Positions 487 through 35,340 of a DNA stretch of 42,439 bases are shown one piece after another (positions within the stretch are counted from its first letter, which is position 1; each line of letters starts with the position of its first letter). Below the pieces are notes generated by a model, which saw nothing but the letters and a program-made list of their open reading frames with translations, ran no database searches and was not told where the DNA came from. Source of the stretch: an uncultured Bacilli bacterium. Lineage in GTDB: Bacteria; Bacillota_I; Bacilli_A; RFN20; DUOF01. The stretch covers positions 1 through 42,439 of the forward strand of contig CALVUJ010000002.1 in assembly GCA_944363575.1 (NCBI GenBank), written 5' to 3'. Both the position numbers and the translations under genes were made by a program.

Positions 487-830
487 ATGAGCATTCAATT
501 CTATAAGCCATGTTCTGTAATCGATAATCATTTATCTATGCTTACGCATCCCTCTTTAAATTCGTTTCTTTAAAGAAAGTTCCCCTACCAATTTTGGGTT
601 TCTCGCTTGTGGGGTTTACCCGTTCCACCTACTAGTTTCCTAGTAACTCGTCTCTGTGGCACTTTCAGGATTAAACCATATCAAAGACTTAGGTTTAAGA
701 TCCGCCATTAGTTGCTCAAACTATCTAGACTTATTTTTTAATCTAGCACAAACACTACTTCCATCACAGAAAGTGCGAGCATGGACTTTCCTCTACTTCA
801 CTAAAAAGCAGCGATTATCCGAATTGAATA
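487..830 (-). ncRNA. rnpB: RNase P RNA (type B, Firmicutes type)
   Basis: Reverse complement contains GGATAATCGCTGC...GAGGAAAGTCCATGCTCGCAC...GAAAGTGCCACAGAGACGAG...GTGGAACGGGTAAACCCCACAAGCGAGAAACCCAAAATTGGTAGGGGAAC...ACAGAACATGGCTTATAGAA. These match P4 and other universally conserved blocks of B. subtilis RNase P RNA. It lies immediately downstream of gpsB as in B. subtilis. Track ORF 656..844 lies inside it and is spurious. Confidence 0.88.
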
Positions 831-2807: not shown

Positions 2808-3118
2808 TTATTATCTCCACCTTCCTGCTCACTAACGTTAACCCTTTCAGGATTACTTTCATACTGATAAACGACTTGTGCTGATGCCTCTACTACACTA
2901 TTTTCTTTTTTAGACATCCGCATTTCCTTAAGTTTCTTTTCTAATTCAGTCTCCGTAGTAAATGTATTGCCAAAGAAAAAGCCAACAAAATTAATAACCT
3001 CTAACACTAAATAATTTAAAACAGTATAAACTAAAACTATACCAAAAAAAACAACCATTAAAGGAAACAATATCGTATATAAAATACCCAAACCAAACAT
3101 TTTAATAAACTCTAACAT
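2804..3118 (-). CDS. Small 2-TM membrane protein with acidic C-terminal tail, uncharacterized
   Basis: ORF. RBS AAGGAGGG. Hydrophobic N-terminal half. Confidence 0.55.
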   Translation of the reverse strand: MLEFIKMFGLGILYTILFPLMVVFFGIVLVYTVLNYLVLEVINFVGFFFGNTFTTETELEKKLKEMRMSKKENSVVEASAQVVYQYESNPERVNVSEQEGGDNK

Positions 3119-14300: not shown

Positions 14301-15009
14301 CAGAAGGAATACTACTTAACTGCTCCCCTACATAATACACTCTATCTTCTGCATAATTAACAACTTCATCACTATAAAAATGATATGTTACCTTATAAGT
14401 AAAAAAGACATTTGTTAACTCCTTCCAAACATCAGCATTCCTATAAGTACTCAACACCGTATTATTAGCAACAACAATTCTAACTTCATTATTAATTCCT
14501 GAAAAAACATTAACATTCTCAAGTTCACTAAATGATGGATTCTCTAAAGATCTATACCTATTAATAAATATTGTCTTAAGTGCACTATTTAAAAAAGCAT
14601 TCTCTCTAATCAAAGTAACACTACTAGCTAAACTAACTTCCTCTAATCTAGAAAACCCACTAAAAGCATACAAACCTACCGTCTGAAGATTATTGCCCCC
14701 ACTTACAGTTACAACTAAATCTTTCGCCGAGTTTAAAACACCAACACCATCACTACCATCGCTAATACTAACAACAGCATACCCATTATAGGTATCAGGA
14801 ATCTCTAAACTATCACTACACTCTCCAGCACAAGAAACACCAGTAATAGAGTAGCCCTTACTCACATCAACCAAATCAACCTGCTCAAAGGTAAAAGACC
14901 AGCCCTCAGAAGCCTTCACCTGATTATGAGATAACATGAAAAAAGACATAACTGCCACGAACATTAAAATTATATATTTTAAAGTTTTATTTTTCACCAC
15001 TTTATTCAC
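11371..15009 (-). CDS. Large surface protein: signal peptide, BspA-type leucine-rich repeats, multiple MBG/YDG-type beta repeats, C-terminal TM helix and ~260-aa cytoplasmic tail
   Basis: Signal peptide MNKVVKNKTLKYIILMFVAVMSFFMLSHNQVKA. LRR-like LQTVGLYAFSGFSRLEEVSLASSVTLIRENAF. Recurring K.YDG/YNG motifs. Hydrophobic VFVVFGSILFIIVGMVVAFVVL near residue 950. Confidence 0.7.
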   Translation of the reverse strand: MNKVVKNKTLKYIILMFVAVMSFFMLSHNQVKASEGWSFTFEQVDLVDVSKGYSITGVSCAGECSDSLEIPDTYNGYAVVSISDGSDGVGVLNSAKDLVVTVSGGNNLQTVGLYAFSGFSRLEEVSLASSVTLIRENAFLNSALKTIFINRYRSLENPSFSELENVNVFSGINNEVRIVVANNTVLSTYRNADVWKELTNVFFTYKVTYHFYSDEVVNYAEDRVYYVGEQLSSIPSELTSAGFVFDGWISDKGGYKVTENSIAEEGSQNNLTHSIEAKWSLALPELSILAQGDGVSNNEKIYNGRENELEMVVSYVHDLSGTEGFEVTYTWKRNHNSIWSVVGGNSNLYSISLVSQSGTYACEVTVQYGEYESSSSIEIEVNIEPKELLIKVNGNETVYGEYVGAKEVNGRYFEVDSEKSLVNGEEIKNYEVAVYSNDNKELVVGTYTDVLKIEILNIGYADSESNYVSNYSIEYDYGDLSVVQKEVEINLLEDFVFSYGDNENLTGVYIDSVYDNNVINEISLVYDREDISNRNAGNYRIVGVTGDNSNYSFSLSASSEGKVVINPKLVAVKWDIPEYLVYDGTVKSVSASYENIEENDVLLDVVITKNDVVSEFKNAGTYELVASGVSDGNYELTGEEMEITIEKADSVFIGDIYQTKVYNGVAQRVDVTLNHNESILVYGDYSSFINANLTTTGVYKMLVSVDESENYKALSMTYSLHIDPYELVVEPDLFEVTYGQTLGQNVLSKVYKGVKGEDVLVCFSKEGGLTSLDVGYYNIVGAYLTNNTNYVATMVPGTGSYKIKIVPAPVDVRFFFYENLKYDGNVKNIGIRVDGTSEDVGLVVDYNGKDVIKNAGSYRIDLSVSNSNFYLRSGSYLEFSIAKGDYDISGLKLENKKINYNFKNHFINLEGDLPEGLTVSYSIDNRVGNGTSLPFKHIVRVTFEGDFDNYNYIEPMEAVLNIDMTWVFVVFGSILFIIVGMVVAFVVLTKFDKIGVIKRRKVIRDVIRKKRVLDSVNAFISERSESLKEEKDIIIEESVKFVKNPVKIDEKDIVALSFVDKLFRSTEETKQYYSDIKNELLSYEGIVSKIKRDYETFYLNNMPVAKMNVVDGLLQVYFALDPSIYRKEEYHHVDVSGEKDFVATPLKLVIATIDDLRNAKMFVRIIRKSEGLKFVSNFVRTDYVKVYTSRDNAFKVFKKVFVKKGKNREEMD

Positions 15010-19859: not shown

Positions 19860-20745
19860 GCACACTTGAAATATAAATATCAACAATTGTATTTATATCA
19901 AACTGCTTTATAAAAGAAGCAAAATCACACTTATTAAAATTAATTATAATTCTTAAATAATATTCACTACTTTCAACAATCTCAATATCTCCTTTAGGAA
20001 TACTATAACTCTTATTAAAAATTATTCTAATTTCTTTTTCTTGCCAATATTTTTCCTTTATTTCTTCAAAATCCCCATCAATAACAATACTCCCATCCTG
20101 CACTACACACACTCTTTTACAAATTTTCTCAACATCCATTATATCACTACTCGCCACCACAATCGATGTCTTAAATTCTTTATTAATTCTCTTAAAAATC
20201 TTCAAAACAATATTTTTCTCAACCAAACTAATATTCCCAAAAACATCATCCAAAAAGATAACTTCTGGATTCCTTAACATCATCATCGCTATATTAACTT
20301 TAATTTTTTCAAGCCCATCTAAACTAGCCACTTTCTTACTAAAAACACGATCAATCCCCACTACTTCTTTAAACTCATTAATCCGCTTTTCAACATCCAA
20401 ACTACTAATTCTAAGCTTACTCCCATAAATCATCAAATTATTATACACAGACTCATTATTTGCTAATCTATAATCAAAATAATCACTAATCACTAAACTT
20501 TCTTTTCTCAATCTCTTATCATCCACAACTCCATCTACTAAAATATTCCCACTCGTAGGCTTCGTTTTACCACTTAACAAATTAATAATAGTAGTCTTCC
20601 CTGAATCAGGACGCCCCACTAAAGCTATAATTTCCCCTTGCCTTATAACCAAATTTAATTCTTTAACAATCTCTATTTTCTCACTCTTTATAAAATTCTT
20701 CTTAATCTTTATACTTTTTGAAACATTTTCAACAACAATCTCCAT
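19843..20745 (-). CDS. ABC-type ATPase-like protein with degenerate signature and Walker B motifs, plus a ~90-aa C-terminal extension
   Basis: Walker A GRPDSGKTT. Q-loop/ABC fold. The expected LSGGQ signature position reads SLDGLEK. Walker B IFLDDV (D instead of the catalytic E). No permease gene adjacent. Confidence 0.6.
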   Translation of the reverse strand: MEIVVENVSKSIKIKKNFIKSEKIEIVKELNLVIRQGEIIALVGRPDSGKTTIINLLSGKTKPTSGNILVDGVVDDKRLRKESLVISDYFDYRLANNESVYNNLMIYGSKLRISSLDVEKRINEFKEVVGIDRVFSKKVASLDGLEKIKVNIAMMMLRNPEVIFLDDVFGNISLVEKNIVLKIFKRINKEFKTSIVVASSDIMDVEKICKRVCVVQDGSIVIDGDFEEIKEKYWQEKEIRIIFNKSYSIPKGDIEIVESSEYYLRIIINFNKCDFASFIKQFDINTIVDIYISSVPISVY

Positions 20746-21799
20746 AATCTTTTCTCCTTTTTAAACTTTTATACTTATTAATTTTCTCCTTCTTATGACC
20801 TTTCTTCACTATCCAAAATAAAATAAGCCCCGAAAGCAAAATAACACCCACAATTAATAACCACCAATAATCAACTTGCTCCTCCACTACTAATAAAACA
20901 CCTAACCCATTACTTGAATATTGTAAATACCCATCTAAATATTCATACTCTAACTTCTCATACACCCCATCATAAACACTATATACCTGTACTCTTCTAT
21001 TTTTAATTTTCTCCTCACCAATAAAAATTTTAGCACTAACCTTCCCATCTACCTCTACTCTTTCATTACCACTCTTCAAATAAACATCCCAGGCACTCCA
21101 AACAACATAGTTATCCAAACCATACTTACTAGAATCACCCTTATCTACAAAAATCGTAGAATTAATCGGTACATACGTATTATCATCCAGTTCTATTTTA
21201 TTTTTTATTTCTCCCATTTTTTCGATTATTCGCGGATGTATACTTCCCGTATACCCATCCAAACCTAAATAATAATTATTACTATTCTTCCCTTCTAAAC
21301 TTAAACCACTTAACTCAACGCCTATATTCTCTCCAACAATAATACTCGAAAAAACTCCCTTTAATTTTCCCTTAACATAAACATCTTCATCAACAATCCC
21401 CACTACTACATATGAAGGCAATTCTAACAAGTTATTCCCATCATACTGCTTACGAATCTCATCTTCAAATCTAACATAAACTTTCTTAGGAATAATCGTA
21501 ATATTTACACTCAGCTCTACTTTTTCATAATTATTATCAAACGGCTCAAATATAACCTGTTCCTCATGATCACCAACACCTAAAACTTTAGTATCTTCTT
21601 TCCAATAAAACGTCCCCTCAACACTAGCCATACCACCACTTAATTCCGACTCAAATAAAGGAGACCCATATGGTATTTCTTCTGCTATTGGCTTTTCAAG
21701 CACACTCGTCGCTTCCAAACCATTTGCTAAATTGTTACTAAATAAAAAAAGAGTTACTAATAAGCAAACAAAATAAATTACACATCTTACTTTCCTCAT
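20729..21799 (-). CDS. Secreted/membrane-anchored protein with MBG/YDG-type repeat and C-terminal TM plus basic tail
   Basis: Signal peptide MRKVRCVIYFVCLLVTLFLFSNNLANG. KQYDGNN motif. C-terminal WWLLIVGVILLSGLILFWIV followed by KKGHKKEKINKYKSLKRRK. 17-nt overlap with the ATPase gene (operon). Confidence 0.6.
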   Translation of the reverse strand: MRKVRCVIYFVCLLVTLFLFSNNLANGLEATSVLEKPIAEEIPYGSPLFESELSGGMASVEGTFYWKEDTKVLGVGDHEEQVIFEPFDNNYEKVELSVNITIIPKKVYVRFEDEIRKQYDGNNLLELPSYVVVGIVDEDVYVKGKLKGVFSSIIVGENIGVELSGLSLEGKNSNNYYLGLDGYTGSIHPRIIEKMGEIKNKIELDDNTYVPINSTIFVDKGDSSKYGLDNYVVWSAWDVYLKSGNERVEVDGKVSAKIFIGEEKIKNRRVQVYSVYDGVYEKLEYEYLDGYLQYSSNGLGVLLVVEEQVDYWWLLIVGVILLSGLILFWIVKKGHKKEKINKYKSLKRRKDYGDCC

Positions 21800-23402: not shown

Positions 23403-23423
23403 TTAAAAAACTAATTTTAATAA

Positions 23424-23456
23424 AAAAAGGGAAAATGATTTTTTTCCCTTTTTTAC
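23424..23456. terminator. Bidirectional intrinsic terminator between the SPFH gene (+) and VirB4-like-1 (-)
   Basis: AAAAAGGGAAAAatgaTTTTTTCCCTTTTTT, a palindromic hairpin with T/A runs on both sides. Confidence 0.65.
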
Positions 23457-25906
23457 TTTTTGAAAACTCTTTCTTCGTTTTTAGTAACGACAATCTTATC
23501 CATCGTTAACCTTTGCCCAGGTGCCACAACAAACAAACATTGACCAATACCTGCATTCGCAATAAACTCTCGCTCTTCATCAGAGAACCCACCAACTGAA
23601 GCATACAAATCCATCAAAGCCTGCAAATCCGCAGGATTCAAACCAAATATAAACGAATATTGACATCCATTAATAATAGAAGTAGTATATTTTTTAATAT
23701 TTGCACTACCAACGAAGTCATTAACGTTTTGAGTAATAACTACAAAAATACCATTATATTTTCTTATACGCTTAACCATTTGGTGCATAAAGTACAATGC
23801 TGCTGGACTTCTCTCATCAATAAACACATGCGCCTCATCTACTACTATTGCCACATGCTTATTCTCATGCCTAGCAATATTTCTTTCCCTATTCTTACTA
23901 ACTTCATTTTCTAAGAAACGAAGAACTAACAACATTTGTGAATTCATAACCATATCATTTTTAGAAGAAGAAGCCTTCCTAAAATCAAACAAAATCAAAT
24001 CACTAGTACTCGTATCAATAGTCGTAGGCCCATTCCACAAACTAGCTAACGAACCCTCTCCACTCAATCTTTCAAAATAAACTTCAATATTCCTTAAATC
24101 ACTTAATTCATCACCTAAATCAATTGATCTATTAGAATCTTTTATAATTAAAGCTGTTATTTTTTCGATTTTTTCCTTAACAATAGCCATCGCATCATCC
24201 ATTATAGGATAATCTTCAGCCTTTAACTTCTCAAAATTATCCGTTTTCTTAATTCCTTTTCTTTCATAAGCTTCAGTCATAATCTTAGACATTCTCGCTA
24301 ATTCTTTATTGGTTAAATCAGGAATTAAGTTTTGCATAAATTGCTCTAAAAATTGAATATGATTAGAAAAAATTGCTCTATACCCTTCCTCTTTTTGCTG
24401 CTCTGTCATCTCCTCTTCATCATCTTCTTGCATCGCTCCAAAAATATGGAAAGGATTTATTCTTGAGTTATTACCTGCTCCAACATCAATAATTTGACCC
24501 CCTAACTTCTTAGTCATATAATCATACTCACCTTCTGGGTCAATAATATAGGTCTTAACATCCTCTAAAATAAGTTTTAACAACATCTTTTTTGTAAAAT
24601 GCGATTTACCAGAACCAGACTTACCAATAACCATAATGTTCGAGTTAGTTCTACTCGTAGATCTAACCTTAGGATCAAAGAAAATCAAACCAGCAGCATT
24701 ATACCCTAACCAAAACCCATCTTTATCATCTAAGCCTTGAAAAATAAAAGGGAAACCTGCCCCAAGTGTACTACAAGGAATATCACGACCATTAGACATA
24801 ATAATATCATCTCTAGGTGTAGGAAGCATAGCTATTAATCCATTTGTCTGCCTAAGAGGTAACTTATCAATTTTAAATCTTTGTTGCTTTAAAGATGAGA
24901 TTACCTTACGATTATTATTCCTTAAATCTTTCTCTGTCTTAGCATAACTCATCGTATAAATATTAATCAATTTAAGCGTCTCATTTCCTCTTTCTATATC
25001 CGATAACACTTCATAAAAAGACTCTAATTGCGTTTGTTTACTCATAGATTCAGAAACTTTACCATGCTCTAACATCTGTGTTCTAATCTCCCTAATAGCT
25101 TTATCCATAAGCATCTTAGCGGTAGAAACCTCTACATTCCTAACATTAACTACCACTGTTGTATCAGGATGCGACATCACCAACGATAGCCATGCACCAG
25201 GAACATCTCTTGGATACTCATATGTAGAAAGAATACTCGCATACATTGAATCTGTCCTAATTTTAGTACTAAAAAACTCTAACTCTTCAGGCATTATATC
25301 TTGTTTATAATCTTCACAAGTTTCAAAATATTTATCATTTTTCGTACCATATGGATTAAACACATAATAAAAGAAAGCCTTAATTTCACTATCGCTACAT
25401 TCCTTAGGTTCCAACTTATTAATCTCTAATTTTTCAAAAACACTGTTATATACAAAATTTAAGTCTTCCAAATTGTTACCATAAATAACTAAATAAAATT
25501 CTTTAACCATTACAGGATAATCTTCTTGATAAGTTTTCATAACTTGCCATTCAAAATCAACCTGCTCTTTTCTATTACGATAACCTTCCTCACTCATATC
25601 CTTATTAGCAAACTTTTCATCTTGTAAAGCATACAACCTCTCCTGCTTATTAATTGCATTCGTTAAATCCAAAGGCCTTTCCAATTTAACAATACTGCAA
25701 TCACCTTTAATCAAATTAAAAGCATTAGTCATTTGCCTAATCTTCGTTCGTTGATCTTCCAAAGATAAATATGCCAAATTTAAACTTCCAACTTTAATAA
25801 CCTTACTAATTTTATTAGTAGTATATGTCACAACACCATTTTCAATTTTCTTAATTGGAAGAAACTCTAAAATATTTCCTCCCTTTCTTGCTGAATTATT
25901 TGCCAT
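23453..25906 (-). CDS. VirB4/ConE/TcpF/Orf16-family conjugation-type ATPase (paralog 1)
   Basis: Walker A IGKSGSGKSHFTKKM followed by IIDPEGEY. Walker B-region IVVDEAHVFIDE. N-terminal LPIKKIENGVVTY as in Gram-positive VirB4 homologs. 817 aa. Confidence 0.85.
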   Translation of the reverse strand: MANNSARKGGNILEFLPIKKIENGVVTYTTNKISKVIKVGSLNLAYLSLEDQRTKIRQMTNAFNLIKGDCSIVKLERPLDLTNAINKQERLYALQDEKFANKDMSEEGYRNRKEQVDFEWQVMKTYQEDYPVMVKEFYLVIYGNNLEDLNFVYNSVFEKLEINKLEPKECSDSEIKAFFYYVFNPYGTKNDKYFETCEDYKQDIMPEELEFFSTKIRTDSMYASILSTYEYPRDVPGAWLSLVMSHPDTTVVVNVRNVEVSTAKMLMDKAIREIRTQMLEHGKVSESMSKQTQLESFYEVLSDIERGNETLKLINIYTMSYAKTEKDLRNNNRKVISSLKQQRFKIDKLPLRQTNGLIAMLPTPRDDIIMSNGRDIPCSTLGAGFPFIFQGLDDKDGFWLGYNAAGLIFFDPKVRSTSRTNSNIMVIGKSGSGKSHFTKKMLLKLILEDVKTYIIDPEGEYDYMTKKLGGQIIDVGAGNNSRINPFHIFGAMQEDDEEEMTEQQKEEGYRAIFSNHIQFLEQFMQNLIPDLTNKELARMSKIMTEAYERKGIKKTDNFEKLKAEDYPIMDDAMAIVKEKIEKITALIIKDSNRSIDLGDELSDLRNIEVYFERLSGEGSLASLWNGPTTIDTSTSDLILFDFRKASSSKNDMVMNSQMLLVLRFLENEVSKNRERNIARHENKHVAIVVDEAHVFIDERSPAALYFMHQMVKRIRKYNGIFVVITQNVNDFVGSANIKKYTTSIINGCQYSFIFGLNPADLQALMDLYASVGGFSDEEREFIANAGIGQCLFVVAPGQRLTMDKIVVTKNEERVFKK
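23505..23930. repeat. ~420-bp near-identical DNA segment shared with 28325-28740 (3' ends of the two VirB4-like paralogs)
   Basis: Example: gcctgcaaatccgcaggattcaaaccaaatataaacgaatattgaca[t/a]ccatt is identical but for 1 nt in both copies. Spurious plus-strand track ORFs 23660..23914 and 28331..28615 translate to the same peptide. Confidence 0.8.
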
Positions 25907-26201
25907 TTTTCTTCACTACACTCTTCTTCTTATAATACTTTTCTTGTGACATATACGCAAATAAAACATCAAAACTTTGATACCCCTTCTTATTAACAAT
26001 AAACGAAGGAGAAACCATAAACAATGTAATAAATCCAATAATAGCAACAACAATAATCTTAGGAACCATTCCCCAAGATGTTTTAAAAATTAAAACACAG
26101 ATGATTGCCGCTACAATGACCATGGCCGCTTCTACAACGCCCAACCCCTTAAATAACTGCATCTTAACATTTCTAGCTGATTTTGGTATCAAATATCCCA
26201 T
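25896..26201 (-). CDS. Small 2-TM membrane protein, VirB3/TcpE/ConD-like by position and topology
   Basis: 101 aa with two hydrophobic helices (VVEAAMVIVAAIICVLIF; IIVVAIIGFITLFMV). Overlaps the VirB4-like start by 11 nt. Sequence-level homology not verifiable by eye. Confidence 0.5.
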   Translation of the reverse strand: MGYLIPKSARNVKMQLFKGLGVVEAAMVIVAAIICVLIFKTSWGMVPKIIVVAIIGFITLFMVSPSFIVNKKGYQSFDVLFAYMSQEKYYKKKSVVKKNGK

Positions 26202-26204
26202 AAA

Positions 26205-28178
26205 CTATACCCCCTTCTTTTGATTGTTATAGAAATCATTTGCCTTAGAACTAGCTTCCATTAACTTCTCTCTTTGTTTATCTGCTCTTTCTTTAACTCT
26301 AAGAGCATCTGCCGTACTCATATTACCAGAACTAATCTCACTAAGTTTTCTAGCCGTTTTACCATATTCAACTTGTGCCTTACGATATGCTGTCGTAATT
26401 TTCTTTAACTCTTCTTGTTGCTTAGAAGACAAATCATTACTCAACTTCGTAGACTTACTTGCAAAATCACGATACCCTTCCTTAGCAACTTTCTCTTCTT
26501 TCTTATATGCTTCAACATATTTAACCATTGAACTCTTAATTTTTGTTTGCTCACCACTACTAATTGAATTATCTAAGTCTTTACTTGCACTCTCAAATTC
26601 TTTTACAACTTCTCTAGAACTAGCACTATTAGAATTCTTCATAAAGCCCCATTCTTGACGAATCTTATCGTTTTCTCTCTTATAACCTGACAAGCTTCTA
26701 TCCAAAACCTCAGTTGGATCAAAACTAGATACAGCATTTTCAGTTGTTTTATAATTACCCCTAATTGCACCACTATCATTACTTCTTGTTTCTCTCTCTG
26801 CTAAAGAAACATTAGCTCTATTTTGAATATTATTAACATGCCTATCAACATTACTTACATTCATATTAACATTATTTCGCACACTACTATTAACATTTAC
26901 TGTTGGCTTAGCTTTCTCTGAATCAGAAGAAACACTCTCATTATAATTAATAATTTTTCTCGTTGAAGTACTAGTCTTTGTAATAACTCTTGTCCTAGGT
27001 GTTGAACTCTCTCCCTTTACAATCGGTGTTTGCTCTTTAGGACCCAATCTATTAAAGATGCCTTCTAATATAGCTCCACTATCATCATTAGAACTTCTAA
27101 ACGTATTTCCTAATAACTCTCCAGAATCTTTAGCCACTGTAGTACCAGCCATCAATAATAACATTTTAGTAAGATTGTTGATTAACAATACTGTCTCATT
27201 AACCTCCGTTTCACCATCTGCTAATGCTTTAATAGCCCCTAAACTACCATCACCAGTAGCTTCAGTTGTTACCTTAACAAGTTCTAAATCATTAATTACA
27301 CCAACCAAAGAAATTAAAATCATAAAAACAATTACAGTACCAATAATTGAAAACAATTCCGGCAAAGCTTTATTCTTCCATTCTCTAAGCTTACTACCCC
27401 CATCATCTACCATTCTAGCAATATAAAAAGGTGCTACCAAATACAAAACAATAATATTAAAAATACGCTTAATTAACTTCAAAACAATTACCACCAAATT
27501 GAAAACAATTACACCGCCACCTAATAAATATACATACCAATAAAAAGTAACTGTTCCTGTTCCACCATATTCTAAATCAAACAAGAAACCATTCTCCATT
27601 TGCTTCCAACTCGTAATCTCCGTCCCATACATAGCATTATATGCCTCAACAGGATCCCCACTAAAACTAATATTAAAAATTAAATCTGCTAACGAAATAT
27701 TACTATTATCACCAAAAATCCCCACAATTGCAGTAGTAATCGTACTAATAGAAGAAATCGCAAACAAAGACAACGGAGCTAAACATATTAAAAGAAAAAA
27801 AGCTAAAACCATATTTCTAATAACACCTACTGTTGACTTAGTTTCTTCTTTACTAAAATACATTTGCTTAATAACGGCAATTGTACCAAAAATAGCCATC
27901 AAAATAACGGAAGTAAAAAGCATAAATAAAGAAACATTAGAAACAATATTTTGATTAAACAGTTGACTTAATAAATCCTGTTCCTCCACCAAATTTTCAC
28001 TACCTGAGCCCAAATAATTTACCCCAACCAATTTATAAAACAAACCTGTAATAACATCAATTAAATTACCAACAGCATAAACTATCTTCCAAAAAAGCTC
28101 ATATATTGCATATAATATGCCTTTAGCAATGTTCCCATATCCAGGATCATCTAACTTAAAAAAGTTAACTATAGACAT
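26205..28178 (-). CDS. VirB6/TrbL/ConG/TcpH-like polytopic membrane protein (paralog 1): N-terminal ~350-aa multi-TM domain, C-terminal ~300-aa hydrophilic coiled-coil/low-complexity domain
   Basis: Multiple TM helices. Shares the conserved block LVAPFYIARMVDDGGSKLREWKNK with paralog 2 (VAPSPISQIVLDGGTKFKQWLKK). Followed directly by the VirB3-like and VirB4-like genes. Confidence 0.7.
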   Translation of the reverse strand: MSIVNFFKLDDPGYGNIAKGILYAIYELFWKIVYAVGNLIDVITGLFYKLVGVNYLGSGSENLVEEQDLLSQLFNQNIVSNVSLFMLFTSVILMAIFGTIAVIKQMYFSKEETKSTVGVIRNMVLAFFLLICLAPLSLFAISSISTITTAIVGIFGDNSNISLADLIFNISFSGDPVEAYNAMYGTEITSWKQMENGFLFDLEYGGTGTVTFYWYVYLLGGGVIVFNLVVIVLKLIKRIFNIIVLYLVAPFYIARMVDDGGSKLREWKNKALPELFSIIGTVIVFMILISLVGVINDLELVKVTTEATGDGSLGAIKALADGETEVNETVLLINNLTKMLLLMAGTTVAKDSGELLGNTFRSSNDDSGAILEGIFNRLGPKEQTPIVKGESSTPRTRVITKTSTSTRKIINYNESVSSDSEKAKPTVNVNSSVRNNVNMNVSNVDRHVNNIQNRANVSLAERETRSNDSGAIRGNYKTTENAVSSFDPTEVLDRSLSGYKRENDKIRQEWGFMKNSNSASSREVVKEFESASKDLDNSISSGEQTKIKSSMVKYVEAYKKEEKVAKEGYRDFASKSTKLSNDLSSKQQEELKKITTAYRKAQVEYGKTARKLSEISSGNMSTADALRVKERADKQREKLMEASSKANDFYNNQKKGV

Positions 28179-28203
28179 ATTATCACTCCTCCCAATATAA
28201 ATT

Positions 28204-28233
28204 AATTATACCTTACTTATTCTTTCTTTTTCA
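28204..28233 (-). promoter_or_regulatory. Sigma-A-type promoter for module 1 (TTGAAA-18-TATAAT on the minus strand)
   Basis: Minus strand reads TTGAAAaagaaagaataagtaaggTATAAT, then RBS GGGAGGAG before ATG at 28178. Confidence 0.55.
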
Positions 28234-28244
28234 ATTGTTTCACC

Positions 28245-28276
28245 AGTAAAAAAAGATATGTTGTCAACATATCTTA
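28245..28276 (-). terminator. Intrinsic terminator ending module 2 (perfect 10-bp stem overlapping the VirB4-like-2 stop)
   Basis: Minus strand reads AAGATATGTTGacaCAACATATCTT followed by TTTTTTTAC. Confidence 0.7.
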
Positions 28277-30706
28277 TTTAAACACACTCTCTTCCTCTTT
28301 ACTTATAATTATTTTTTCAATAATTAACCTTTGCCCAGGAGAAACAATAAACAAACATTGACCAATACCAGCATTACCAATAAAAATTCTCTCTTCATCA
28401 GAAAACCCACCAACCGAAGCATAAAGATCCATCAAGGCCTGCAAATCCGCAGGATTCAAACCAAATATAAACGAATATTGACAACCATTTATGATTGCCG
28501 TCGTATACTTCTTAATATTTGCACTACCAACAAAATCATTAACGTTTTGAGTGATAACTACAAAAATACCATTATACTTTCTTATACGCTTAACCATATT
28601 AAACATAAATTGTAATGCTGCTGGACTCTTCTCATCAATAAACACATGGGCCTCATCTACCGCTATCGCAATATAATGATCTTCTCCCTTTAACAAATTT
28701 CTTTCCCTATTCTTACTAACTTCATTTTCCAAAAACCTAAGCACAAGCATCATTTGAGCATTCATAACTTTATCATTTTTAGAATCATTCATCTTCTTAA
28801 AATCAAACAAAATAAAATCAGATGTTTTAGTATTAATCGTAGTCTCACCATTCCAAAGTGTAGCCAAAGAACCCCCACTACTCATCCTCTTCAAATAAAC
28901 TTCAAGATTCCTTAAATCATTCAACTCATCGCCCAAATCTGCTGCCCTATTAGAATCCTTAGTAATAATTGCTGCTAACTCATTAACTCGCCATTTAACA
29001 AGATTCATCAAATCATCAATAATAGGAAAATCCTTAGCCTCTAAACTTTGAAAATCCGTAGTTTCCTCAATTTTCTTTTGTTTATAAACTTCTACAATAA
29101 GAGAAGATAATCTCGCCACTTCCTTATCTGTTAAATCAGGAATTAAACTTTGAAAAAATTGTTCCAAAAATTGAATGTGTGAAGAGAAAGCAGCTCTTCT
29201 CAAACTATTAGCATTCTCTTCTCCAACTTCATCCTCATCTTGCAACTGCCCAAAAATATGAAAAGGATTAATACGCGAATCTACTGCTGCACCAACATCA
29301 ATCATTTGCCCGCCTAATTGCTTACAAATAATTTTATATTCACCCTCAGGGTCAATAATATATGTCTTAATATCTTGAAGCAACAACCTTAAAATCATTT
29401 TCTTCGTAAAATGTGATTTACCAGAACCAGATTTACCAATAATCATAATATTTGAGTTAGTTCTAGCCGGATTTCTAACCGTAGGATCAAAGAAAATCAA
29501 ATTAGTCTTATTATTACCTAATAAAAAACCTTTTTCATCCTCTAATGCTTGAAACACAAAAGGAAAACCAGCACCCAAACTCAAACAAGGAATATCCCTA
29601 CCATGATCTAACATAACATCATCCCTAGGAGTAGGAAGCATACTAATATACCCATCTAACTGCCTACACAACAACTTATCTGGTTTCATGGAATTTTGTT
29701 TAATAGCAGATGATACAGAATGTGATATAACCTTCAAATCTTTATCATTATCACTATAAGCCATTATCATTACATTAACTCTCTTTAAAACCTCACTACC
29801 TCTTTCAATCTCTTCCAAAATATACAAAAATGACTCTAACTGTGCTTGCTTAGCTATATCTTGCGAAGACTTATTCTTATTAAGCAACTGTGTCCTAACT
29901 TCCGTAATAGCTTTATCCATCAAATTTCTAGCCTCTGTCGTAGGAACATTCTCAATATTAATAACACAACTAGTATTATCTATATTCACTAAAGGAGCCA
30001 ACCAACTTGCATTAACATTCATAGGAAAATCTAAAACAGAAAAAGTAGTCGCATACATCGTATCAGTCTTAATCCTAGTAGTATTAAACTCTAAAAAATC
30101 TGGAAGAATATCATTAATATAATTTTCATTATCAACAAAATCATCCATTGTCTTTTGTCCAATAGGATTATACATATGATAAAACAAATACTTAATTTCT
30201 AAATCCCCACACTCAACAGGATCCACCTTCAATTGTGAAAACCTAGAAAAAACATCATCATATAACAACTTAAACTCCTCTGGATCTTTCCCATAAACAA
30301 TAAAATAAAACTCATTACTCAAAATATTAGCTTCATTATTAAAATACTCTAACCTTCTTTTTTCAAAATTAACTTGCTTTAATCTATTATTATAACCTTC
30401 CTCATTCATATTACCTTCTCTAAATTTACGATGCTGAATCTTAAGAAGTTCCTTTTGCTGCTCTATCTGCCTAGTTAAATCCATAGGCCTCTCCAACTTA
30501 ACAATACTGCAATCCCATTGAATAGAAGCCAAAATAGAAGCAAACTGATTTATTTTAACCTTCTGCTCTTCACTATCCAACAACAACAAATTCAAACTAT
30601 TTATCTTAATAACCCTCGCCAACATATTATTATGGTAAGTAACAACACCATCCTTAATCGATTTAACAGCAATAAAACTAGAAATATCTGCTCCTTTTTT
30701 CTTCAT
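28274..30706 (-). CDS. VirB4/ConE/TcpF-family conjugation-type ATPase (paralog 2)
   Basis: Walker A IGKSGSGKSHFTKKM, IIDPEGEY, IAVDEAHVFIDE. ~65% aa identity to paralog 1 overall, >90% over the C-terminal 140 aa. Start set at MKKKGADISS (RBS AAGGAG). The 22-codon upstream extension in the track ORF lacks an RBS. Confidence 0.85.
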   Translation of the reverse strand: MKKKGADISSFIAVKSIKDGVVTYHNNMLARVIKINSLNLLLLDSEEQKVKINQFASILASIQWDCSIVKLERPMDLTRQIEQQKELLKIQHRKFREGNMNEEGYNNRLKQVNFEKRRLEYFNNEANILSNEFYFIVYGKDPEEFKLLYDDVFSRFSQLKVDPVECGDLEIKYLFYHMYNPIGQKTMDDFVDNENYINDILPDFLEFNTTRIKTDTMYATTFSVLDFPMNVNASWLAPLVNIDNTSCVINIENVPTTEARNLMDKAITEVRTQLLNKNKSSQDIAKQAQLESFLYILEEIERGSEVLKRVNVMIMAYSDNDKDLKVISHSVSSAIKQNSMKPDKLLCRQLDGYISMLPTPRDDVMLDHGRDIPCLSLGAGFPFVFQALEDEKGFLLGNNKTNLIFFDPTVRNPARTNSNIMIIGKSGSGKSHFTKKMILRLLLQDIKTYIIDPEGEYKIICKQLGGQMIDVGAAVDSRINPFHIFGQLQDEDEVGEENANSLRRAAFSSHIQFLEQFFQSLIPDLTDKEVARLSSLIVEVYKQKKIEETTDFQSLEAKDFPIIDDLMNLVKWRVNELAAIITKDSNRAADLGDELNDLRNLEVYLKRMSSGGSLATLWNGETTINTKTSDFILFDFKKMNDSKNDKVMNAQMMLVLRFLENEVSKNRERNLLKGEDHYIAIAVDEAHVFIDEKSPAALQFMFNMVKRIRKYNGIFVVITQNVNDFVGSANIKKYTTAIINGCQYSFIFGLNPADLQALMDLYASVGGFSDEERIFIGNAGIGQCLFIVSPGQRLIIEKIIISKEEESVFK

Positions 30707-30720
30707 AATGATACTCCTTT

Positions 30721-30799
30721 CAAAACAAATAAAGGCCCAAAGGCCTTTATCTCCACACAGGCTCATTCTCATTGTAAATTAACCCATGTTTTTTTTCAA
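30721..30799 (-). promoter_or_regulatory. Putative internal promoter (TTGAAA-17-TACAAT, 30771-30799) plus terminator-like leader hairpin (AAAGGCC-uuug-GGCCUUU + AUUUGUUUUG, 30721-30748) immediately upstream of the VirB4-like-2 RBS
   Basis: Read directly from the minus strand between the stop of the VirB6-like-2 gene (30827) and the ATG at 30706. Confidence 0.4.
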
Positions 30800-30826
30800 C
30801 ATATCACCAACTTTTTGTTTATTCAA

Positions 30827-33800
30827 CTACTTTTTATTGTTTCTTTCTTTAATTTCTACCTTAATATCATCAATCTTTCTCCTATGCCCAATAACTTCAT
30901 GAATAGCATTCTTAACTTTTTCTAATGTATTAGGATTCTTATTAGCAGCAAACTCTCTCATCGCATCATATGCTGTAGACAAACTATTAGCATAATCACT
31001 ATTTGCTCTCTTATACCTATCTAACAAAGCATTCTTATAAGAAGTTGGTTTTCCGTTATAATCAACTTCTTCAGAACCACCCTTAATTCGACCAATCGTC
31101 TTAACCATTGCATCAATCTTCACACCAGCATCTAAATCATGCGAATATTGAATAGCATCATATGCCATACTCTCTAATCTTTGAGCATCCGCTGCTGGAT
31201 CAAACACACCTTGTCCTCCAACAAGTGAATTACCATCAAACTTAGTAGTATCAAGAGAATGAGCAATGCCATCTAAAGCACTAGTTTGAACATCTATCAC
31301 TATCTTTTCTCTAGGTCCCCTAGCACCAGAATTCCTTCTAGGTTTTGGTGTTCCTCCACCTGCACTTCCTCCTGGTGTTGGTGTGCCTGTTCCACCTGTG
31401 TTTGCTTGATTACTACTATTATTATTTTGATGAACTCTCACTTCAACAGCAGGTCCTTGTTGTGCTTGTTGAGTTTGTGGTCTTGGTTGAGTAGTTGTAT
31501 TTTGTGGTCTTGGTTGAGTAGTTGTATTTTGTGGTGTTGGTTGATTATTTCCTCCAACAGTAGTTACTGTTACCTCAGGCGAAACTTCTGAATTCCCACG
31601 AATATTTTGTTGAGCTGTACGAAGAGGTGTAGCCCTTTTAACTGATTTAGCACCAAGTTTATTTATACCAGATACATTAACCTTTTTGAATTTATTATAT
31701 TTCTTCACTTGCTTTTCATTAATTTTGTTTAACTTTCTCTCTAATTTATCCGCTTTTGCGTTATCTCCACTATTTCTCATTACCGCAATATCAGATTCAA
31801 TTTGACTATACCTATCAGCATATTCTTTATAAGATTGATTGTTAGCTAAATTCTTCGCACTCTTTTTCTTAACATCTCCATATGTACTCCTCATAACTTC
31901 ACTCAATCCATCAGAAGCTTTAGCTAAAGCATCCTTCTTCTTAACTACAGCAGCTCTAGCCTCATTAACTTCTTTTTCAGATTTAGTACTATCAGAACGA
32001 ACTTCGTTATATTTATTAATTGCATCCGTATATTCCTTTCTAGCATTTGAATAATCAGACATCTTCGTTTGTAAGTTCTCATTTGCCTTTCCAGTAACAT
32101 CAACTGCCGTTCTTTGAACAGAAGCTGCATCATTTCCCATTCTGTCAAGACTGCTAGCACCAGAATCAACATTCATTGATTGATTTCTAGAAGACACTTC
32201 TTGTTGTAAATTAGTTGTCGCCGTTTGTAGTTCCTTTGAAGTTCCTTTTACTTTATTCTCAGCTTCTTTTTTCTGTTGCTCCCATTCATCTTTTTTCATT
32301 CCAGCAGGTTTCTTTTGTGAAATATTTTTATATTCTGTTAGAGCTTTATCATGTTTTGTTCTTGCTTCATCAAAATTAATACGCAACTTATCATATTGTT
32401 GTAAATTATTTCCCGCCGTTTCTAGTTCCTTTGAAGTTCCTTTTACTTTATTCTCAGCTTCTTTTTTCTGTTGCTCCCATTTATCATTTTTCATTCCAAG
32501 AGGTTTCTTCTTTGAAATCTTGTTATATTCTTCTTGAGCTTTTTCATGATTTGCTTTTGCTTTATCAAAATTATTACGCAACTCATCATTACCAGATACA
32601 CCATCCATCATATTTGAAGCTTCACTAACTTTATTTGCTGTCTCTGCAACATCATCACCCATTGTCTCAGTATTCCACTTAGACTCATCTGTATAATCTC
32701 TAGCATTCATTTCATTTACAGCATTGGCACTATTATTAACTGCCTCATCAGCATCCAATGCAGATTGAACCCTATCCATTGAATCATGAACACCAATATT
32801 ACCACTATTTAATACTCTCTTCTCAGCTTTGGTAACCTTATCTGCTGAACCAGGTTGACTCACTACATTATTATTCTTACTATTTTTACCTTTACCGTTT
32901 TTACCGTTTTCTTTCTTCTTTTGATTAGCTGACTTAGCCACAAATTTACCAACTTGTCGCTTAGTTTGATCAATCGTACCATGAACTGTTGACTCAACAG
33001 CACTGGCAACGCCACCCCAACCTGCAGCTTGAAGAACTGCTTTTGATAATATTCCAGCAGTAGATAAACCTGCTTTTGCAGCAGTTCCTGCGACACCAAG
33101 TGAAGTTGTACCAAGAGCAAGTAACCCTCTACCAGCCAAACCAAGAATGTTTCGACCAATATTCTTTTTAACACCTTGACGAGATAATGTTCCACGTGCT
33201 CCAATTCTTCCATTTGTATCTCCACCTTGAGGTGTTCCACCTGATCCATTTGCTGGTGCTGCTGATGTTGCTGATGCTCCGTCATTTGAGCCATCTTCTG
33301 GTGCTCCATCACCTGCGTTATCTGATGGTGCTGCTGCCTCTTCTGGTGCTCCATCACCTGCGTTATCTGCTGGTGCTGGCCCACCTGATCCTGGTGTTGC
33401 CGTTTCTGGTCCTGGCCCACCTGGTCCTGGTGTTGGTGTCTCTTTTTCTTCATTTTCTGGTGGACCTTCTTTTGGTTTAGGCTTCAATTTCCTCGCTCCT
33501 TTAACTGCAGAAAGTCCAAAACCAACAGTCGCACCAACTGCTTGTTTCGTTATGTCTAGAGCAGCTCCACCAACTGCTTTTGCCGCACCCATAACTGCTT
33601 GTCCACTAGCTCCCAACTCCATAGATGAGCTTCCTCCTGAAAGTAATGGAGTTATTGTTGCATCAATATCTGCAATCGCACCTACTCCAGCAACTATAAG
33701 CATTGCTTTTCCTAAAGCATTGATAGCGCTATCAACCCAAGATGGCTCTGTCCCCCCATAATACAAGAAACTTACATCATTACGCAACTCTAAAATCAAA

Positions 33801-34852
33801 TTATTGCTCTCTATAATATTACTAATTGACGTTGCTGCATCAGTAGAATCATAAGCATATTTTGCAACATCCAAATCATTGATAGCTCCAAGCATAAGGA
33901 AAAAAATCATAAACGACATTACACAACCAACGACCTTTAATGCTTCTTCCATAACTTTTTTTAACCATTGTTTGAATTTAGTACCGCCATCCAAAACAAT
34001 TTGAGAAATTGGTGATGGAGCAACGATAAAATATGCTACTAATTTATATAATCTTGTAACCATCGCAACCATCATTTTACCAACATTTAAAATTAAAATA
34101 AGACCAACAAAAATAAATATATACCAATGGAAATAAGATTGTTCTACCTGCGTACCATTAATTGAAAGTGATCCTACCCATTTTTCGGCAGTACTTTCAT
34201 TTATATAATAGTGAAAGAAAGTATCGCCCGAATACCATCCAAAATTATTCGGATCATACAATTCAGAATTAGGCAATGAAAAAGCAACCGCTCTAACACT
34301 TTGCCCTCCATCGTCCCAGCACATATTAAAGAGCATGGTACCTATTCCGCCTCCGCCATAACCCATTGCACGCATAACTAAAACTGCTAGCATACCGGAA
34401 ACTTCAAGCAAAAAAGTAAAAATAGGAATAACACAAATAAAAGCAAGAAAACTTAAGGCAACATCTCTAAAAATAGGAGCTTTAGAACGTGGCCCCGCTC
34501 TATCAAAATAATCTTGTTTAATAATTTTAGCAATGGCAAAAACAATTACTAGACCTAATGCTATTAAAGACAAATATATATATGCACTTCTAAATTCCTC
34601 TCTAGCTACAAAAAAGTTAACAATATCAACTTGTCCCTCATCTATACTTGTTGCCGATTCATCAAAAACAGGTGTAACCCCTGCAAATATAAAAAAAAGT
34701 TGAGTTAGTAAGTCAAGAACCCATGCTATTGCCTTAATAATTCCAAAATAAATACCATAAATAAACTTCCAAAAAGTATTTGTAATACCCCTAACGACAC
34801 CATCAATAAGACCTTGTAACCATTCCCAAAACAGGAAATTTATTCTTAACAT
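30827..34852 (-). CDS. VirB6/TrbL/ConG-like polytopic membrane protein (paralog 2) with ~900-aa repetitive C-terminal extension (G/P/T/A-rich linkers, coiled-coil repeats, Q/T/P-rich 9-aa repeats)
   Basis: N-terminal 440 aa homologous to paralog 1 (FWKFIYGIYFGIIKAIAWVLDLLTQLFF vs FWKIVYAVGNLIDVITGLFYKLVG; DGGTKFKQW block). The C-terminal region has internal DNA tandem repeats at 31484-31560, 32227-32590 and 33295-33440. Confidence 0.7.
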   Translation of the reverse strand: MLRINFLFWEWLQGLIDGVVRGITNTFWKFIYGIYFGIIKAIAWVLDLLTQLFFIFAGVTPVFDESATSIDEGQVDIVNFFVAREEFRSAYIYLSLIALGLVIVFAIAKIIKQDYFDRAGPRSKAPIFRDVALSFLAFICVIPIFTFLLEVSGMLAVLVMRAMGYGGGGIGTMLFNMCWDDGGQSVRAVAFSLPNSELYDPNNFGWYSGDTFFHYYINESTAEKWVGSLSINGTQVEQSYFHWYIFIFVGLILILNVGKMMVAMVTRLYKLVAYFIVAPSPISQIVLDGGTKFKQWLKKVMEEALKVVGCVMSFMIFFLMLGAINDLDVAKYAYDSTDAATSISNIIESNNLILELRNDVSFLYYGGTEPSWVDSAINALGKAMLIVAGVGAIADIDATITPLLSGGSSSMELGASGQAVMGAAKAVGGAALDITKQAVGATVGFGLSAVKGARKLKPKPKEGPPENEEKETPTPGPGGPGPETATPGSGGPAPADNAGDGAPEEAAAPSDNAGDGAPEDGSNDGASATSAAPANGSGGTPQGGDTNGRIGARGTLSRQGVKKNIGRNILGLAGRGLLALGTTSLGVAGTAAKAGLSTAGILSKAVLQAAGWGGVASAVESTVHGTIDQTKRQVGKFVAKSANQKKKENGKNGKGKNSKNNNVVSQPGSADKVTKAEKRVLNSGNIGVHDSMDRVQSALDADEAVNNSANAVNEMNARDYTDESKWNTETMGDDVAETANKVSEASNMMDGVSGNDELRNNFDKAKANHEKAQEEYNKISKKKPLGMKNDKWEQQKKEAENKVKGTSKELETAGNNLQQYDKLRINFDEARTKHDKALTEYKNISQKKPAGMKKDEWEQQKKEAENKVKGTSKELQTATTNLQQEVSSRNQSMNVDSGASSLDRMGNDAASVQRTAVDVTGKANENLQTKMSDYSNARKEYTDAINKYNEVRSDSTKSEKEVNEARAAVVKKKDALAKASDGLSEVMRSTYGDVKKKSAKNLANNQSYKEYADRYSQIESDIAVMRNSGDNAKADKLERKLNKINEKQVKKYNKFKKVNVSGINKLGAKSVKRATPLRTAQQNIRGNSEVSPEVTVTTVGGNNQPTPQNTTTQPRPQNTTTQPRPQTQQAQQGPAVEVRVHQNNNSSNQANTGGTGTPTPGGSAGGGTPKPRRNSGARGPREKIVIDVQTSALDGIAHSLDTTKFDGNSLVGGQGVFDPAADAQRLESMAYDAIQYSHDLDAGVKIDAMVKTIGRIKGGSEEVDYNGKPTSYKNALLDRYKRANSDYANSLSTAYDAMREFAANKNPNTLEKVKNAIHEVIGHRRKIDDIKVEIKERNNKK
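31484..31560. repeat. 27-bp tandem repeat (x~2.7) encoding QPRPQNTTT units
   Basis: tttgtggtcttggttgagtagttgtat repeated at 31484 and 31511, with a partial third copy. Confidence 0.75.
32227..32590. repeat. Two tandem ~195-bp (65-codon) direct repeats inside the VirB6-like-2 gene (EQQKKEAENKVKGTSKEL... coiled-coil unit)
   Basis: Copy 1 from 32227 and copy 2 from 32422. The first ~80 nt are nearly identical (gttcctttgaagttccttttactttattctcagcttcttttttctgttgctcccat). Confidence 0.8.
33295..33440. repeat. 45-bp and 33-bp short tandem repeats encoding the G/P/A/D-rich linker (DNAGDGAPE...; GPGPPG...)
   Basis: cttctggtgctccatcacctgcgttatctg at 33295 and 33340. ggcccacctg(a/g)tcctggtgttg at ~33377 and ~33410. 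Confidence 0.65.
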
Positions 34853-34939
34853 ACTACTACCTCCCCTTGAGTTTAAAATAAAAAAGAAAGCTAGAAAGCT
34901 TTCTTATCACCAACTAGCGGTTATTTTTTTTCCTCTTTA

Positions 34940-35269
34940 TTAGCTTGCTTGTTTAGCAAAATAACTCAATAGTATTTGAGCAACTGCTGCAACACCGTAA
35001 CCGATAGCAACACCAATTACTAACCACTTTAATGAGCCTATTTTTTCTTGCCTTACTTGTGGTTCATCTGCAGCTTTAACAATTTGAACACCTAGCAAAG
35101 CACCTTTAATAACCAACAACACACCTAGTACAATATAAATTATAACTAGCAATGTATTAGCAACATCAATAACAGTTGCCATTGCATCAGAAAGTCCAGA
35201 ATCCCCAATATTTGTAGAAGTATCAATTGAAGGACCACTTAAAAATGCCATTAACCTCATTAAACTCAT
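34940..35269 (-). CDS. Small 2-TM protein; possible VirB2/TrbC pilin-like or other T4SS membrane component
   Basis: 109 aa. Polar N-terminus then two hydrophobic helices (LLVIIYIVLGVLLVIKGALLGV; WLVIGVAIGYGVAAVAQILL). First gene of module 2, with its own promoter. Confidence 0.4.
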   Translation of the reverse strand: MSLMRLMAFLSGPSIDTSTNIGDSGLSDAMATVIDVANTLLVIIYIVLGVLLVIKGALLGVQIVKAADEPQVRQEKIGSLKWLVIGVAIGYGVAAVAQILLSYFAKQAS

Positions 35270-35295
35270 ATTTTACCCTTCCTTTCTCTAATATA

Positions 35296-35340
35296 CCCAA
35301 ATTATAGCATACAAATTTTTTTTAAAACAATAAAATGTCC
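35296..35340 (-). promoter_or_regulatory. Promoter with extended -10 (TGcTATAAT on the minus strand) for module 2
   Basis: Minus strand reads TTGTTTtaaaaaaaatttgtaTGCTATAAT, then RBS GAAAGGAAGGG before ATG 35269. Confidence 0.5.

Follow-up and report, generated by a model that had tools for sequence, protein, structure and literature searches.

A chromosomal type IV secretion core beside spoIVA in gut Bacilli, probably retained for a host function

Nearly all known type IV secretion systems (T4SSs) of Gram-positive bacteria are conjugation systems, and among monoderms VirB2-type pilins are known in Patescibacteria only, according to a 2025 review (PMC12857230). The conjugation core of Mollicutes integrative and conjugative elements (ICEs) and plasmids, as in CDS15-CDS16-CDS17 of ICEA from M. 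agalactiae and on Spiroplasma plasmids, belongs to mobile systems that carry a type IV coupling protein (T4CP; CDS5) and a DDE recombinase and have the VirB3-like part fused to VirB4 (PMC6030558, PMC12857230). The T4SSs of Patescibacteria (the candidate phyla radiation, CPR), such as that of Southlakia epibionticum, derive from the monoderm mating-pair formation (MPF) type FATA and are chromosomal, vertically inherited and relaxase-less (PMC12102498, PMC12857230), and the archaeal Ced/Ted DNA importers are domesticated chromosomal sets of VirB2-like, VirB6-like and VirB4-like proteins with no relaxase or coupling protein (PMC9905601). Here we analyse a six-gene T4SS-like locus next to the sporulation gene spoIVA in a 42,439-nucleotide stretch of DNA from an uncultured Bacilli bacterium (assembly GCA_944363575.1, contig CALVUJ010000002.1), referred to in its full length as the 42-kb window.

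Six open reading frames (ORFs), all on the minus strand, fill positions 23453-35340 and represent four T4SS families: one VirB2-like pilin, two VirB6-like membrane proteins, one VirB3-like protein and two VirB4 ATPases (Table 1). Curated hidden Markov models (HMMs) identify the genes as the conjugation core known from Mollicutes ICEs (Mbov_0395/0396/0397 families). They lie between spoIVA, spoVIF, der and cmk on one flank and an SPFH/zinc-ribbon gene on the other; the ORF list and HMM searches thereby bear out an original prediction of two VirB4 and two VirB6-like genes among six minus-strand genes in this place. Unit 2 comprises the pilin gene, virB6_2 and virB4_2, and unit 1 comprises virB6_1, virB3 and virB4_1. 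The units are complementary, with a single pilin gene and a single VirB3 gene in the window, a feature that the prediction had missed. The locus is likely the core of a monoderm T4SS (MPF-FATA type) that has been domesticated, fixed in the chromosome and passed on vertically, and it most likely works as one machine for membrane translocation and pilus assembly, with specialised paralog pairs. A host function is probable, since the searches turned up no genes for DNA processing or mobility in its neighbourhood.

Both ATPases pass the equivalog cutoff (590 bits) of NF045975 VirB4_plasma/Mbov_0397, VirB4_1 with 613.4 bits and VirB4_2 with 636.5 bits, and both are matched by the Pfam families P-loop_TraG (4e-24 for VirB4_2), AAA_10 and DUF87. 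The VirB4 C-domain matches that of PDB 4AG5 (E 2e-58), and the Walker A (GKSGSGKS) and Walker B (DE) motifs are invariant across 10 VirB4 orthologs and paralogs. VirB4_1 and VirB4_2 are 59% identical overall, with 45% identity over the N-domain and 71% over the ATPase domain, so that the homology predicted for the two ATPases is confirmed. The start of virB4_2 is most likely at 30706, because a GAAAGGAG ribosome-binding site (RBS) precedes this position and gene callers use it. The two virB4 genes are 81% identical at their 3' ends. Gene conversion was weighed as the source of this identity and rejected, as the region hardly varies in any of the orthologs and purifying selection therefore accounts for it.

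The VirB3-like N-terminal segment of the VirB4_plasma model (positions 1-100) is not fused to either ATPase, whose matches begin at model positions 102 and 81, and is found as a separate 101-amino-acid (aa) gene in unit 1 that is absent from unit 2. The 101-aa protein aligns to model positions 2-99 (E 3.8e-7), has two transmembrane segments and scores 23.3 bits against PrgI (E 9.6e-5, cutoff 27). The motifs YLIPKSARNVK and VSPSFI.NKKGYQ are strongly conserved in the VirB3-like protein.

The 657-aa VirB6-like protein passes the cutoffs of both NF045848 MMCAP2_0566_fam (116.5 bits, cutoff 90) and NF045889 Mbov_0396 (81.6 bits, cutoff 70), and the 1341-aa protein reaches 81.7 bits with MMCAP2_0566_fam, just under the cutoff. 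In these Pfam and NCBIfam searches, of the kind proposed with the prediction, both VirB4s and the 657-aa protein stand above the NCBIfam cutoffs and the others just below their cutoffs. The N-domains of the two membrane proteins are paralogous (23% identity, E 9e-33), again as predicted, and a profile of both N-domains retrieved 1589 clusters among 1.84 billion representatives. Ten remote profile matches were sampled, all of them MMCAP2_0566/Mbov_0396 members, and eight also tie weakly to the pLS20_p028 transmembrane protein. In a Foldseek search with the VirB6-like protein model, R388 TrwI/VirB6 was the best membrane-protein fold match, which recovers the VirB6 fold; the alignment profile gave chance matches only against PDB sequences.

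Hydropathy, charge distribution and model helices give the 657-aa protein six transmembrane helices, with loops that are basic on one side and acidic on the other. From this charge bias both ends of the protein, the tail included, are predicted to be cytoplasmic, and for the 657-aa protein the charge bias and model helices do not support the extracellular-type tail of the prediction. Its C-terminal helical bundle gave generic structural matches only. Both tails are basic (pI 9.4-9.55; 9.4 for the 1341-aa tail), and Gly/Ala-rich segments of the 1341-aa tail might re-enter the membrane. The 1341-aa tail is a fast-evolving, low-complexity/coiled-coil region, of which the last 220 residues are weakly conserved and define no clear terminal domain. 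It contains one 195-nt (65-aa) tandem duplication (32201-32589, 88% identity) and short Pro/Gly-rich repeats (33225-33441), so that the description of the tails as repetitive holds for these segments of the long tail and not otherwise. A tail difference in the metagenome contig L001 was considered as a population variant and rejected, since L001 comes from the same assembly and simply breaks off at the Pro/Gly repeat.

The 109-aa protein encoded by the first gene of unit 2 scores 24.4 bits (E 3e-5) with T4SS_pilin PF18895 (gathering threshold 26.6) and 35.5 bits with the Mbov_0395 pilin-like family (cutoff 40). PF18895 matches all nine pilin orthologs at E of at most 0.01, the Erysipelotrichaceae ortholog (L017) exceeding the threshold with 28.5 bits, and a precomputed PF18895 match is on record for most of the database homologs. 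The AlphaFold2 model is a helical hairpin (pLDDT 80), for which Foldseek returned generic helical hairpins only (E>2), a result that does not discriminate either way. The loop KAADEPQVRQEK is invariant in 28 pilin homologs, and the rest of the protein varies. The pilin search yielded 164 distinct clusters at 90% identity versus about 80 for VirB4, with 52-73% identity outside the invariant loop. These figures fit a fast-evolving subunit that may be surface-exposed.

The distribution of the locus was followed with a VirB4 scan of one genome per GTDB species, in which related loci or contigs (numbered L001 upward) were compared with the window; the 17 focal loci total 338 kb. At >50% VirB4 identity the family comprises about ten metagenome-assembled genomes (MAGs), from gut Bacilli, Erysipelotrichaceae and one digester MAG. 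The six-gene locus stands whole beside spoIVA in L006, L009 and L010 (86-88% VirB4 identity) and in L002 and L007 (74%). The units are split in two MAGs, where unit 1 remains beside spoIVA (L013, L014) and unit 2 lies between eno and pgi (L015/L004, L008). The Erysipelotrichaceae bacterium SIG223 (L017) has a single unit, pilin-VirB6-VirB3-VirB4, after cmk-der-spoVIF-spoIVA. Adjacency to spoIVA was thus found in 9/9 loci with a visible flank (the window, L002, L006, L007, L009, L010, L013, L014 and L017), across 50% to 100% VirB4 identity, and the opposite flank varies. This is the synteny check proposed with the prediction, and no direct repeats were found to bound the locus. In L015 (12638-13435) and L008 (12978-13775) a 265-aa predicted lipoprotein, 72% identical between the two and with no homolog in the window, is encoded 3' of virB4_2. 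As candidate conserved accessory genes, this lipoprotein gene and four small ORFs that lie upstream of spoIVA in the clade of L002 were considered; none has a homolog in the window, and they are not counted as part of the system.

A neighbour-joining tree of 91 VirB4s, including 45 Patescibacteria-type sequences, shows the focal VirB4 family as monophyletic, with one duplication, the single-copy Erysipelotrichaceae outside it and the same branching order in both paralog subtrees. Clostridia ICE-like sequences and those of Spiroplasma cluster with the focal VirB4s, and Patescibacteria form a separate clade. The nearest outgroups are Spiroplasma and Clostridia MAG loci; one Clostridia MAG, at 33% VirB4 identity, encodes a VirD4 coupling protein as well as two T4SS_pilin genes. 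In PLSDB no plasmid relative exceeds 31% VirB4 identity; the best are Spiroplasma plasmids, with the order Mbov_0396 transmembrane protein, small ORF, Mbov_0397 VirB4 and then T4CP.

None of the six ORFs is broken in any of the genomes compared, RBSs are conserved, and VirB4 and SpoIVA have equal amino-acid divergence (85-89% identity). Between the window and L006, L009 and L010 the ratio of nonsynonymous to synonymous substitution rates (dN/dS) is 0.04-0.06 for VirB4_1, 0.05-0.08 for VirB4_2, 0.05-0.10 for VirB3, about 0.07 for SpoIVA, about 0.2 for the 657-aa protein and 0.3-0.5 for the pilin, values that are approximate because dS is saturated (1-2); despite this saturation the contrast with a decaying remnant is unambiguous. 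The tail of the 657-aa protein is conserved to the same degree as its membrane domain. Between species with VirB4 86-89% identical, the membrane domain of the 1341-aa protein is 54-61% identical and the tail 25-29%, with tail dN about equal to dS, and the virB6_2 ORF stays open in every genome (1341-1648 aa).

The genes of the locus would descend from a lineage that also gave rise to the transfer genes of Mollicutes ICEs and plasmids and to pilin-bearing Clostridia ICE-like elements. An ancestral unit of VirB2-like pilin, VirB6-like protein, VirB3-like protein and VirB4 may have settled beside spoIVA and then undergone one tandem duplication. Complementary losses would have followed, unit 2 keeping the pilin and gaining the giant VirB6 tail, and unit 1 keeping VirB3.

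The inner-membrane complex of the R388 system is a hexamer of VirB4 dimers with the N-terminal domains as dimer interface; the contacts to VirB3 are made by the VirB4 N-domain, VirB3 binds the central VirB4 only, and a VirB6 pentamer forms the base at which VirB2 is proposed to polymerise (PMC9259494). By analogy, VirB3 would anchor a VirB4 hexamer at the membrane, and the VirB6-like subunits of both paralogs would form a membrane platform or channel. ATP hydrolysis by VirB4 would pull pilin from the membrane and polymerise it on VirB6 into a pilus or a short conduit that crosses the wall. The two VirB4/VirB6 pairs may be specialised parts of one machine that uses the single pilin and the single VirB3. 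A single machine is favoured because there is one pilin and one VirB3, whose gene overlaps virB4_1, and because the divergence of the VirB4s lies mainly in the N-domain. A possible arrangement is a heteromeric motor in which VirB4_1 with VirB3 makes up the 'central' ring and VirB4_2 the 'outside' subunits. With no relaxase or coupling protein at the locus, the substrate would not be an ICE, and the machine probably transfers DNA or protein between cells in contact, in the manner of Ced/Ted or of the Patescibacteria T4SS.

Several points weigh against a domesticated single machine. The production of a pilus, the interaction of the paralog pairs and the cargo are matters that we infer by analogy. 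The window pilin and VirB3 score just under the curated HMM cutoffs, the VirB6 fold match is moderate (TM score 0.41, Foldseek E 4e-3, for a model with mean pLDDT 61.6), and the selection estimates carry the saturation given above. One VirB3 per locus is not a universal rule, as the digester MAG retains two copies. In that genome (L011, 1271-8815) the order is VirB4, VirB3, VirB6, VirB3, VirB4, the second VirB3 standing upstream of virB6_1 and not of virB4_2. A T4CP, a relaxase, a VirB8-like protein and a wall hydrolase are possibly encoded elsewhere in the genome, the searches having covered the window and, for the T4CP, the focal loci as well. A more specific form of the domesticated machine, a bacterial counterpart of Ced/Ted in which a VirB2-type pilus serves relaxase-independent exchange or uptake, between cells, of chromosomal DNA or other macromolecules and the VirB4 paralogs take the 'central' and 'outside' positions of R388 in a heteromeric motor, is conceivable and unlikely.

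The same searches bear on a split conjugation system, in which the locus would be the mating-pair formation module, the T4CP and the relaxase, or in its place a DDE recombinase like that of Mollicutes ICEs, would be encoded elsewhere, and DNA of the chromosome or of mobilisable elements would still be exported. The closest mobile relatives carry the T4CP right beside VirB4, T4CP genes of Patescibacteria are often far from virB4 (PMC12102498), and the searches took in the window and focal loci rather than the whole genome, all of which leaves room for this arrangement. However, tblastn with two T4CPs against the 338 kb of focal loci matched only the Walker A region of VirB4 genes, and no T4CP was found within 10 kb on either side in the 17 loci or in the 42-kb window. 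No relaxase, T4CP or integrase was recognised among all other window ORFs of at least 100 aa, and no VirB8-like protein or wall hydrolase in the window. Vertical inheritance and fixation at one site are also unlike a self-transmissible element, and we regard a split system as improbable.

The position next to spoIVA raises the possibility of a sporulation-associated channel, for transport between mother cell and forespore or for assembly of coat or crust fibres, which would account for an adjacency that is kept in every visible flank while the other flank varies. The promoters argue otherwise. The TTGTTT...TGnTATAAT arrangement is kept upstream of the pilin gene in 8 related loci, including the two genomes with relocated unit 2, and the unit 1 promoter is kept upstream of virB6_1 in the window, L006, L009, L010, L007, L012, L013 and L014. 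Both are sigma-A-type, which points to vegetative expression of the locus. Consensus sequences for the sporulation sigma factors were compared with the unit promoters by eye rather than in a formal scan, and no likeness to sigma-E, K, F or G promoters was seen. Furthermore, a conserved terminator follows spoIVA in every genome compared, unit 2 lies between eno and pgi in two genomes, and one ancestral insertion with few rearrangements can explain the adjacency. The sporulation link implied by the prediction is therefore not upheld, and a sporulation channel is very improbable.

Two transcription units with sigma-A-type promoters and terminators had been predicted, and these elements are conserved, but further elements were found within unit 2. 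The hairpin and T-run after the pilin gene are kept in L006, L009 and L010, and the clade of L002, L007, L015 and L008 has a terminator and a new promoter there. Both the promoter-like element and the hairpin of the spacer upstream of virB4_2 are kept in 8 loci; the orthologous spacers (L002, L006-L010 and L015) are about 120 nt long, and in them the RBS comes directly after the hairpin and T-run. The stem varies by clade and still pairs (AAAGGCC/GGCCTTT versus AGAGGCCC/GGGTCTCT), and by its sequence the element looks like a leader attenuator. Regulation is more complex than two operons, and the layout is typical of pilin loci with the major subunit in excess. A shared operator, ATGTT-N-AACAT, was also considered; the window has two copies, which both lie within the locus, and the idea was dropped, as chance alone predicts 1.3 and two are reached in 38 of 100 shuffles.

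A decaying ICE remnant without current function, which the missing majority of conjugative-element genes and the near-neutral rate of the long VirB6 tail might suggest, is effectively refuted by ORFs that are intact throughout with invariant Walker motifs, VirB4 and VirB3 dN/dS values (0.04-0.10) equal to that of SpoIVA, conserved promoters and RBSs, the keeping of both paralogs since an old duplication, and the lack of att repeats, tRNA genes and an integrase at the locus. The prediction of a retained, duplicated VirB4/VirB6 apparatus rather than a decaying ICE is thus supported by the spoIVA synteny, the single old duplication, purifying selection, the conserved promoters and the T4CP-free 338 kb.

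Table 1. Genes and regulatory elements of the locus, in window coordinates
Feature	Position	Strand	Details
Bidirectional terminator	23423..23454	.	Common to the virB4_1 end and the convergent SPFH/zinc-ribbon gene
VirB4 ATPase 1 (virB4_1)	23453..25906	-	817 aa
VirB3/PrgI-like two-transmembrane protein (virB3)	25896..26201	-	101 aa; 3' end overlaps virB4_1 start by 11 nt
VirB6-like polytopic membrane protein 1 (virB6_1)	26205..28178	-	657 aa; about 6 transmembrane helices, disordered linker, C-terminal helical bundle
Unit 1 promoter	28205..28234	-	TTGAAA, 18 nt, TATAAT; 11/12 match
Terminator after virB4_2	28248..28273	-	AT-rich hairpin GATATGTTGACAACATATC + T7; kept in L006, L009, L012
VirB4 ATPase 2 (virB4_2)	28274..30706	-	810 aa from RBS-preceded ATG; longest ORF reaches 30772 (832 aa)
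Spacer upstream of virB4_2	30721..30799	-	Promoter-like TTGAAA-17-TACAAT (30799-30771), GC hairpin AAAGGCC/GGCCTTT (30748-30731), T-run
VirB6-like polytopic membrane protein 2 (virB6_2)	30827..34852	-	1341 aa; N-terminal membrane domain ~400 aa, tail ~940 aa
Hairpin and T-run between pilin gene and virB6_2	34875..34905	-	Stem 34905-34884; terminator or attenuator
VirB2-like T4SS pilin	34940..35269	-	109 aa; two long hydrophobic helices with invariant loop between
Pilin-gene promoter	35301..35330	-	-35 TTGTTT (35330-35325), 18-nt spacer, extended -10 TGcTATAAT (35309-35301)

The surroundings of the locus are those of a chromosome, as predicted for gene content and composition alike. Besides the sporulation genes, the remaining window genes are housekeeping genes (including prfA, prmC, murA, fba, an aminoacyl-tRNA synthetase, dnaD and nth) or of no assigned function. 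GC content and GC skew of the locus match the flanks, with the exception of the Pro/Gly/Ala-rich tail region of the 1341-aa gene; no tRNA genes were found in the window, and an Rfam scan found no RNA family within the locus. A class B bacterial RNase P RNA at 499-826 (minus strand, 286 bits) fits a low-GC Firmicute chromosome. The Cap15 cyclic-dinucleotide receptor domain of Pfam and 13 '2TM effector' models of PADLOC (best E 1e-19) match a 175-aa protein at 1637-2164 (minus strand). A search of its neighbourhood recognised no cyclase, the adjacent small ORFs (2151-2807 and 2804-3118) having no hits, and the protein may be an orphan or unusual effector of the cyclic-oligonucleotide-based antiphage signalling system (CBASS) type. 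A 1212-aa protein with BspA-type leucine-rich repeat, MBG and Ig-like domains (11371-15009, minus strand) and a 356-aa YDG-domain protein that is syntenic in relatives (20729-21799, minus strand) are probable surface proteins of a gut commensal.

A host-owned, fixed T4SS core with a VirB2-like pilin in walled, endospore-forming gut Firmicutes would widen the set of domesticated systems beyond archaea and CPR bacteria. The locus also indicates that the pilin gene belongs to the lineage of Mollicutes ICEs and Clostridia ICE-like elements. Two diverged VirB4/VirB6 pairs that share one VirB3 and one pilin also amount to a natural experiment, in which the role of the 'outside' VirB4 and that of extended VirB6 tails become testable. 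Our literature search found no paper that describes such a machine in Firmicutes. The prediction had taken the system to be undescribed in general; relaxase-less chromosomal machines of VirB2, VirB6 and VirB4 are known, however (PMC9905601, PMC12102498, PMC12857230), and the same trio forms the core of the Mollicutes ICE and plasmid systems.

A further parallel is with the vir T4SS of Rickettsiales. That system is diderm (MPF-T), has a full set of VirB7-11 and VirD4 and delivers effectors to eukaryotic cells, and its sequences are unrelated to those of the locus beyond the superfamily. Reported for it are a chromosomal location, paralogous VirB4 and VirB6 proteins and very large C-terminal extensions of VirB6, as at the present locus (PMC2653234, PMC7648143).

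Closest by sequence is the Mollicutes core, with matches to Mbov_0395, Mbov_0396 and Mbov_0397, the same order of transmembrane protein, small two-transmembrane protein and VirB4, and likewise no VirB8- or VirB1-like gene at the locus (PMC6030558, PMC12857230). VirB4 identity is only about 30%, however, and the present locus differs in being chromosomal and fixed, with no T4CP nearby, a separate VirB3 and duplicated VirB4 and VirB6 genes, in a walled, spore-forming host. With the Patescibacteria systems it shares the monoderm MPF-FATA derivation, the chromosomal and vertically inherited state and the lack of a relaxase; VirB2-like pilins (PF18895, for which the window pilin scores just under the threshold) adjoin VirB3, VirB4 and VirB6 in both, and non-conjugative co-option is presumed. 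The Patescibacteria VirB4s, in their separate clade, are nevertheless only 24-28% identical, and CPR loci have pilin arrays, TrsD-like genes, often hydrolase genes and usually a single VirB4, in contrast to one pilin and two VirB4/VirB6 pairs here. The host is a spore-forming Firmicute and not an ultrasmall epibiont.

By composition and status, the archaeal Ced/Ted importers come closest. Sequence similarity to them is not meaningful, the best NCBIfam match, NF053655 CedD, being partial with 30 bits (cutoff 600). Ced/Ted machines operate in an archaeal envelope and their import of DNA has been shown experimentally, whereas the present locus is known from sequence and has no evident UV or DNA-damage context. 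In the unlikely case that the locus is a true counterpart of Ced/Ted, gut Firmicutes that have a cell wall and form spores would have captured a conjugation machine in their chromosome.

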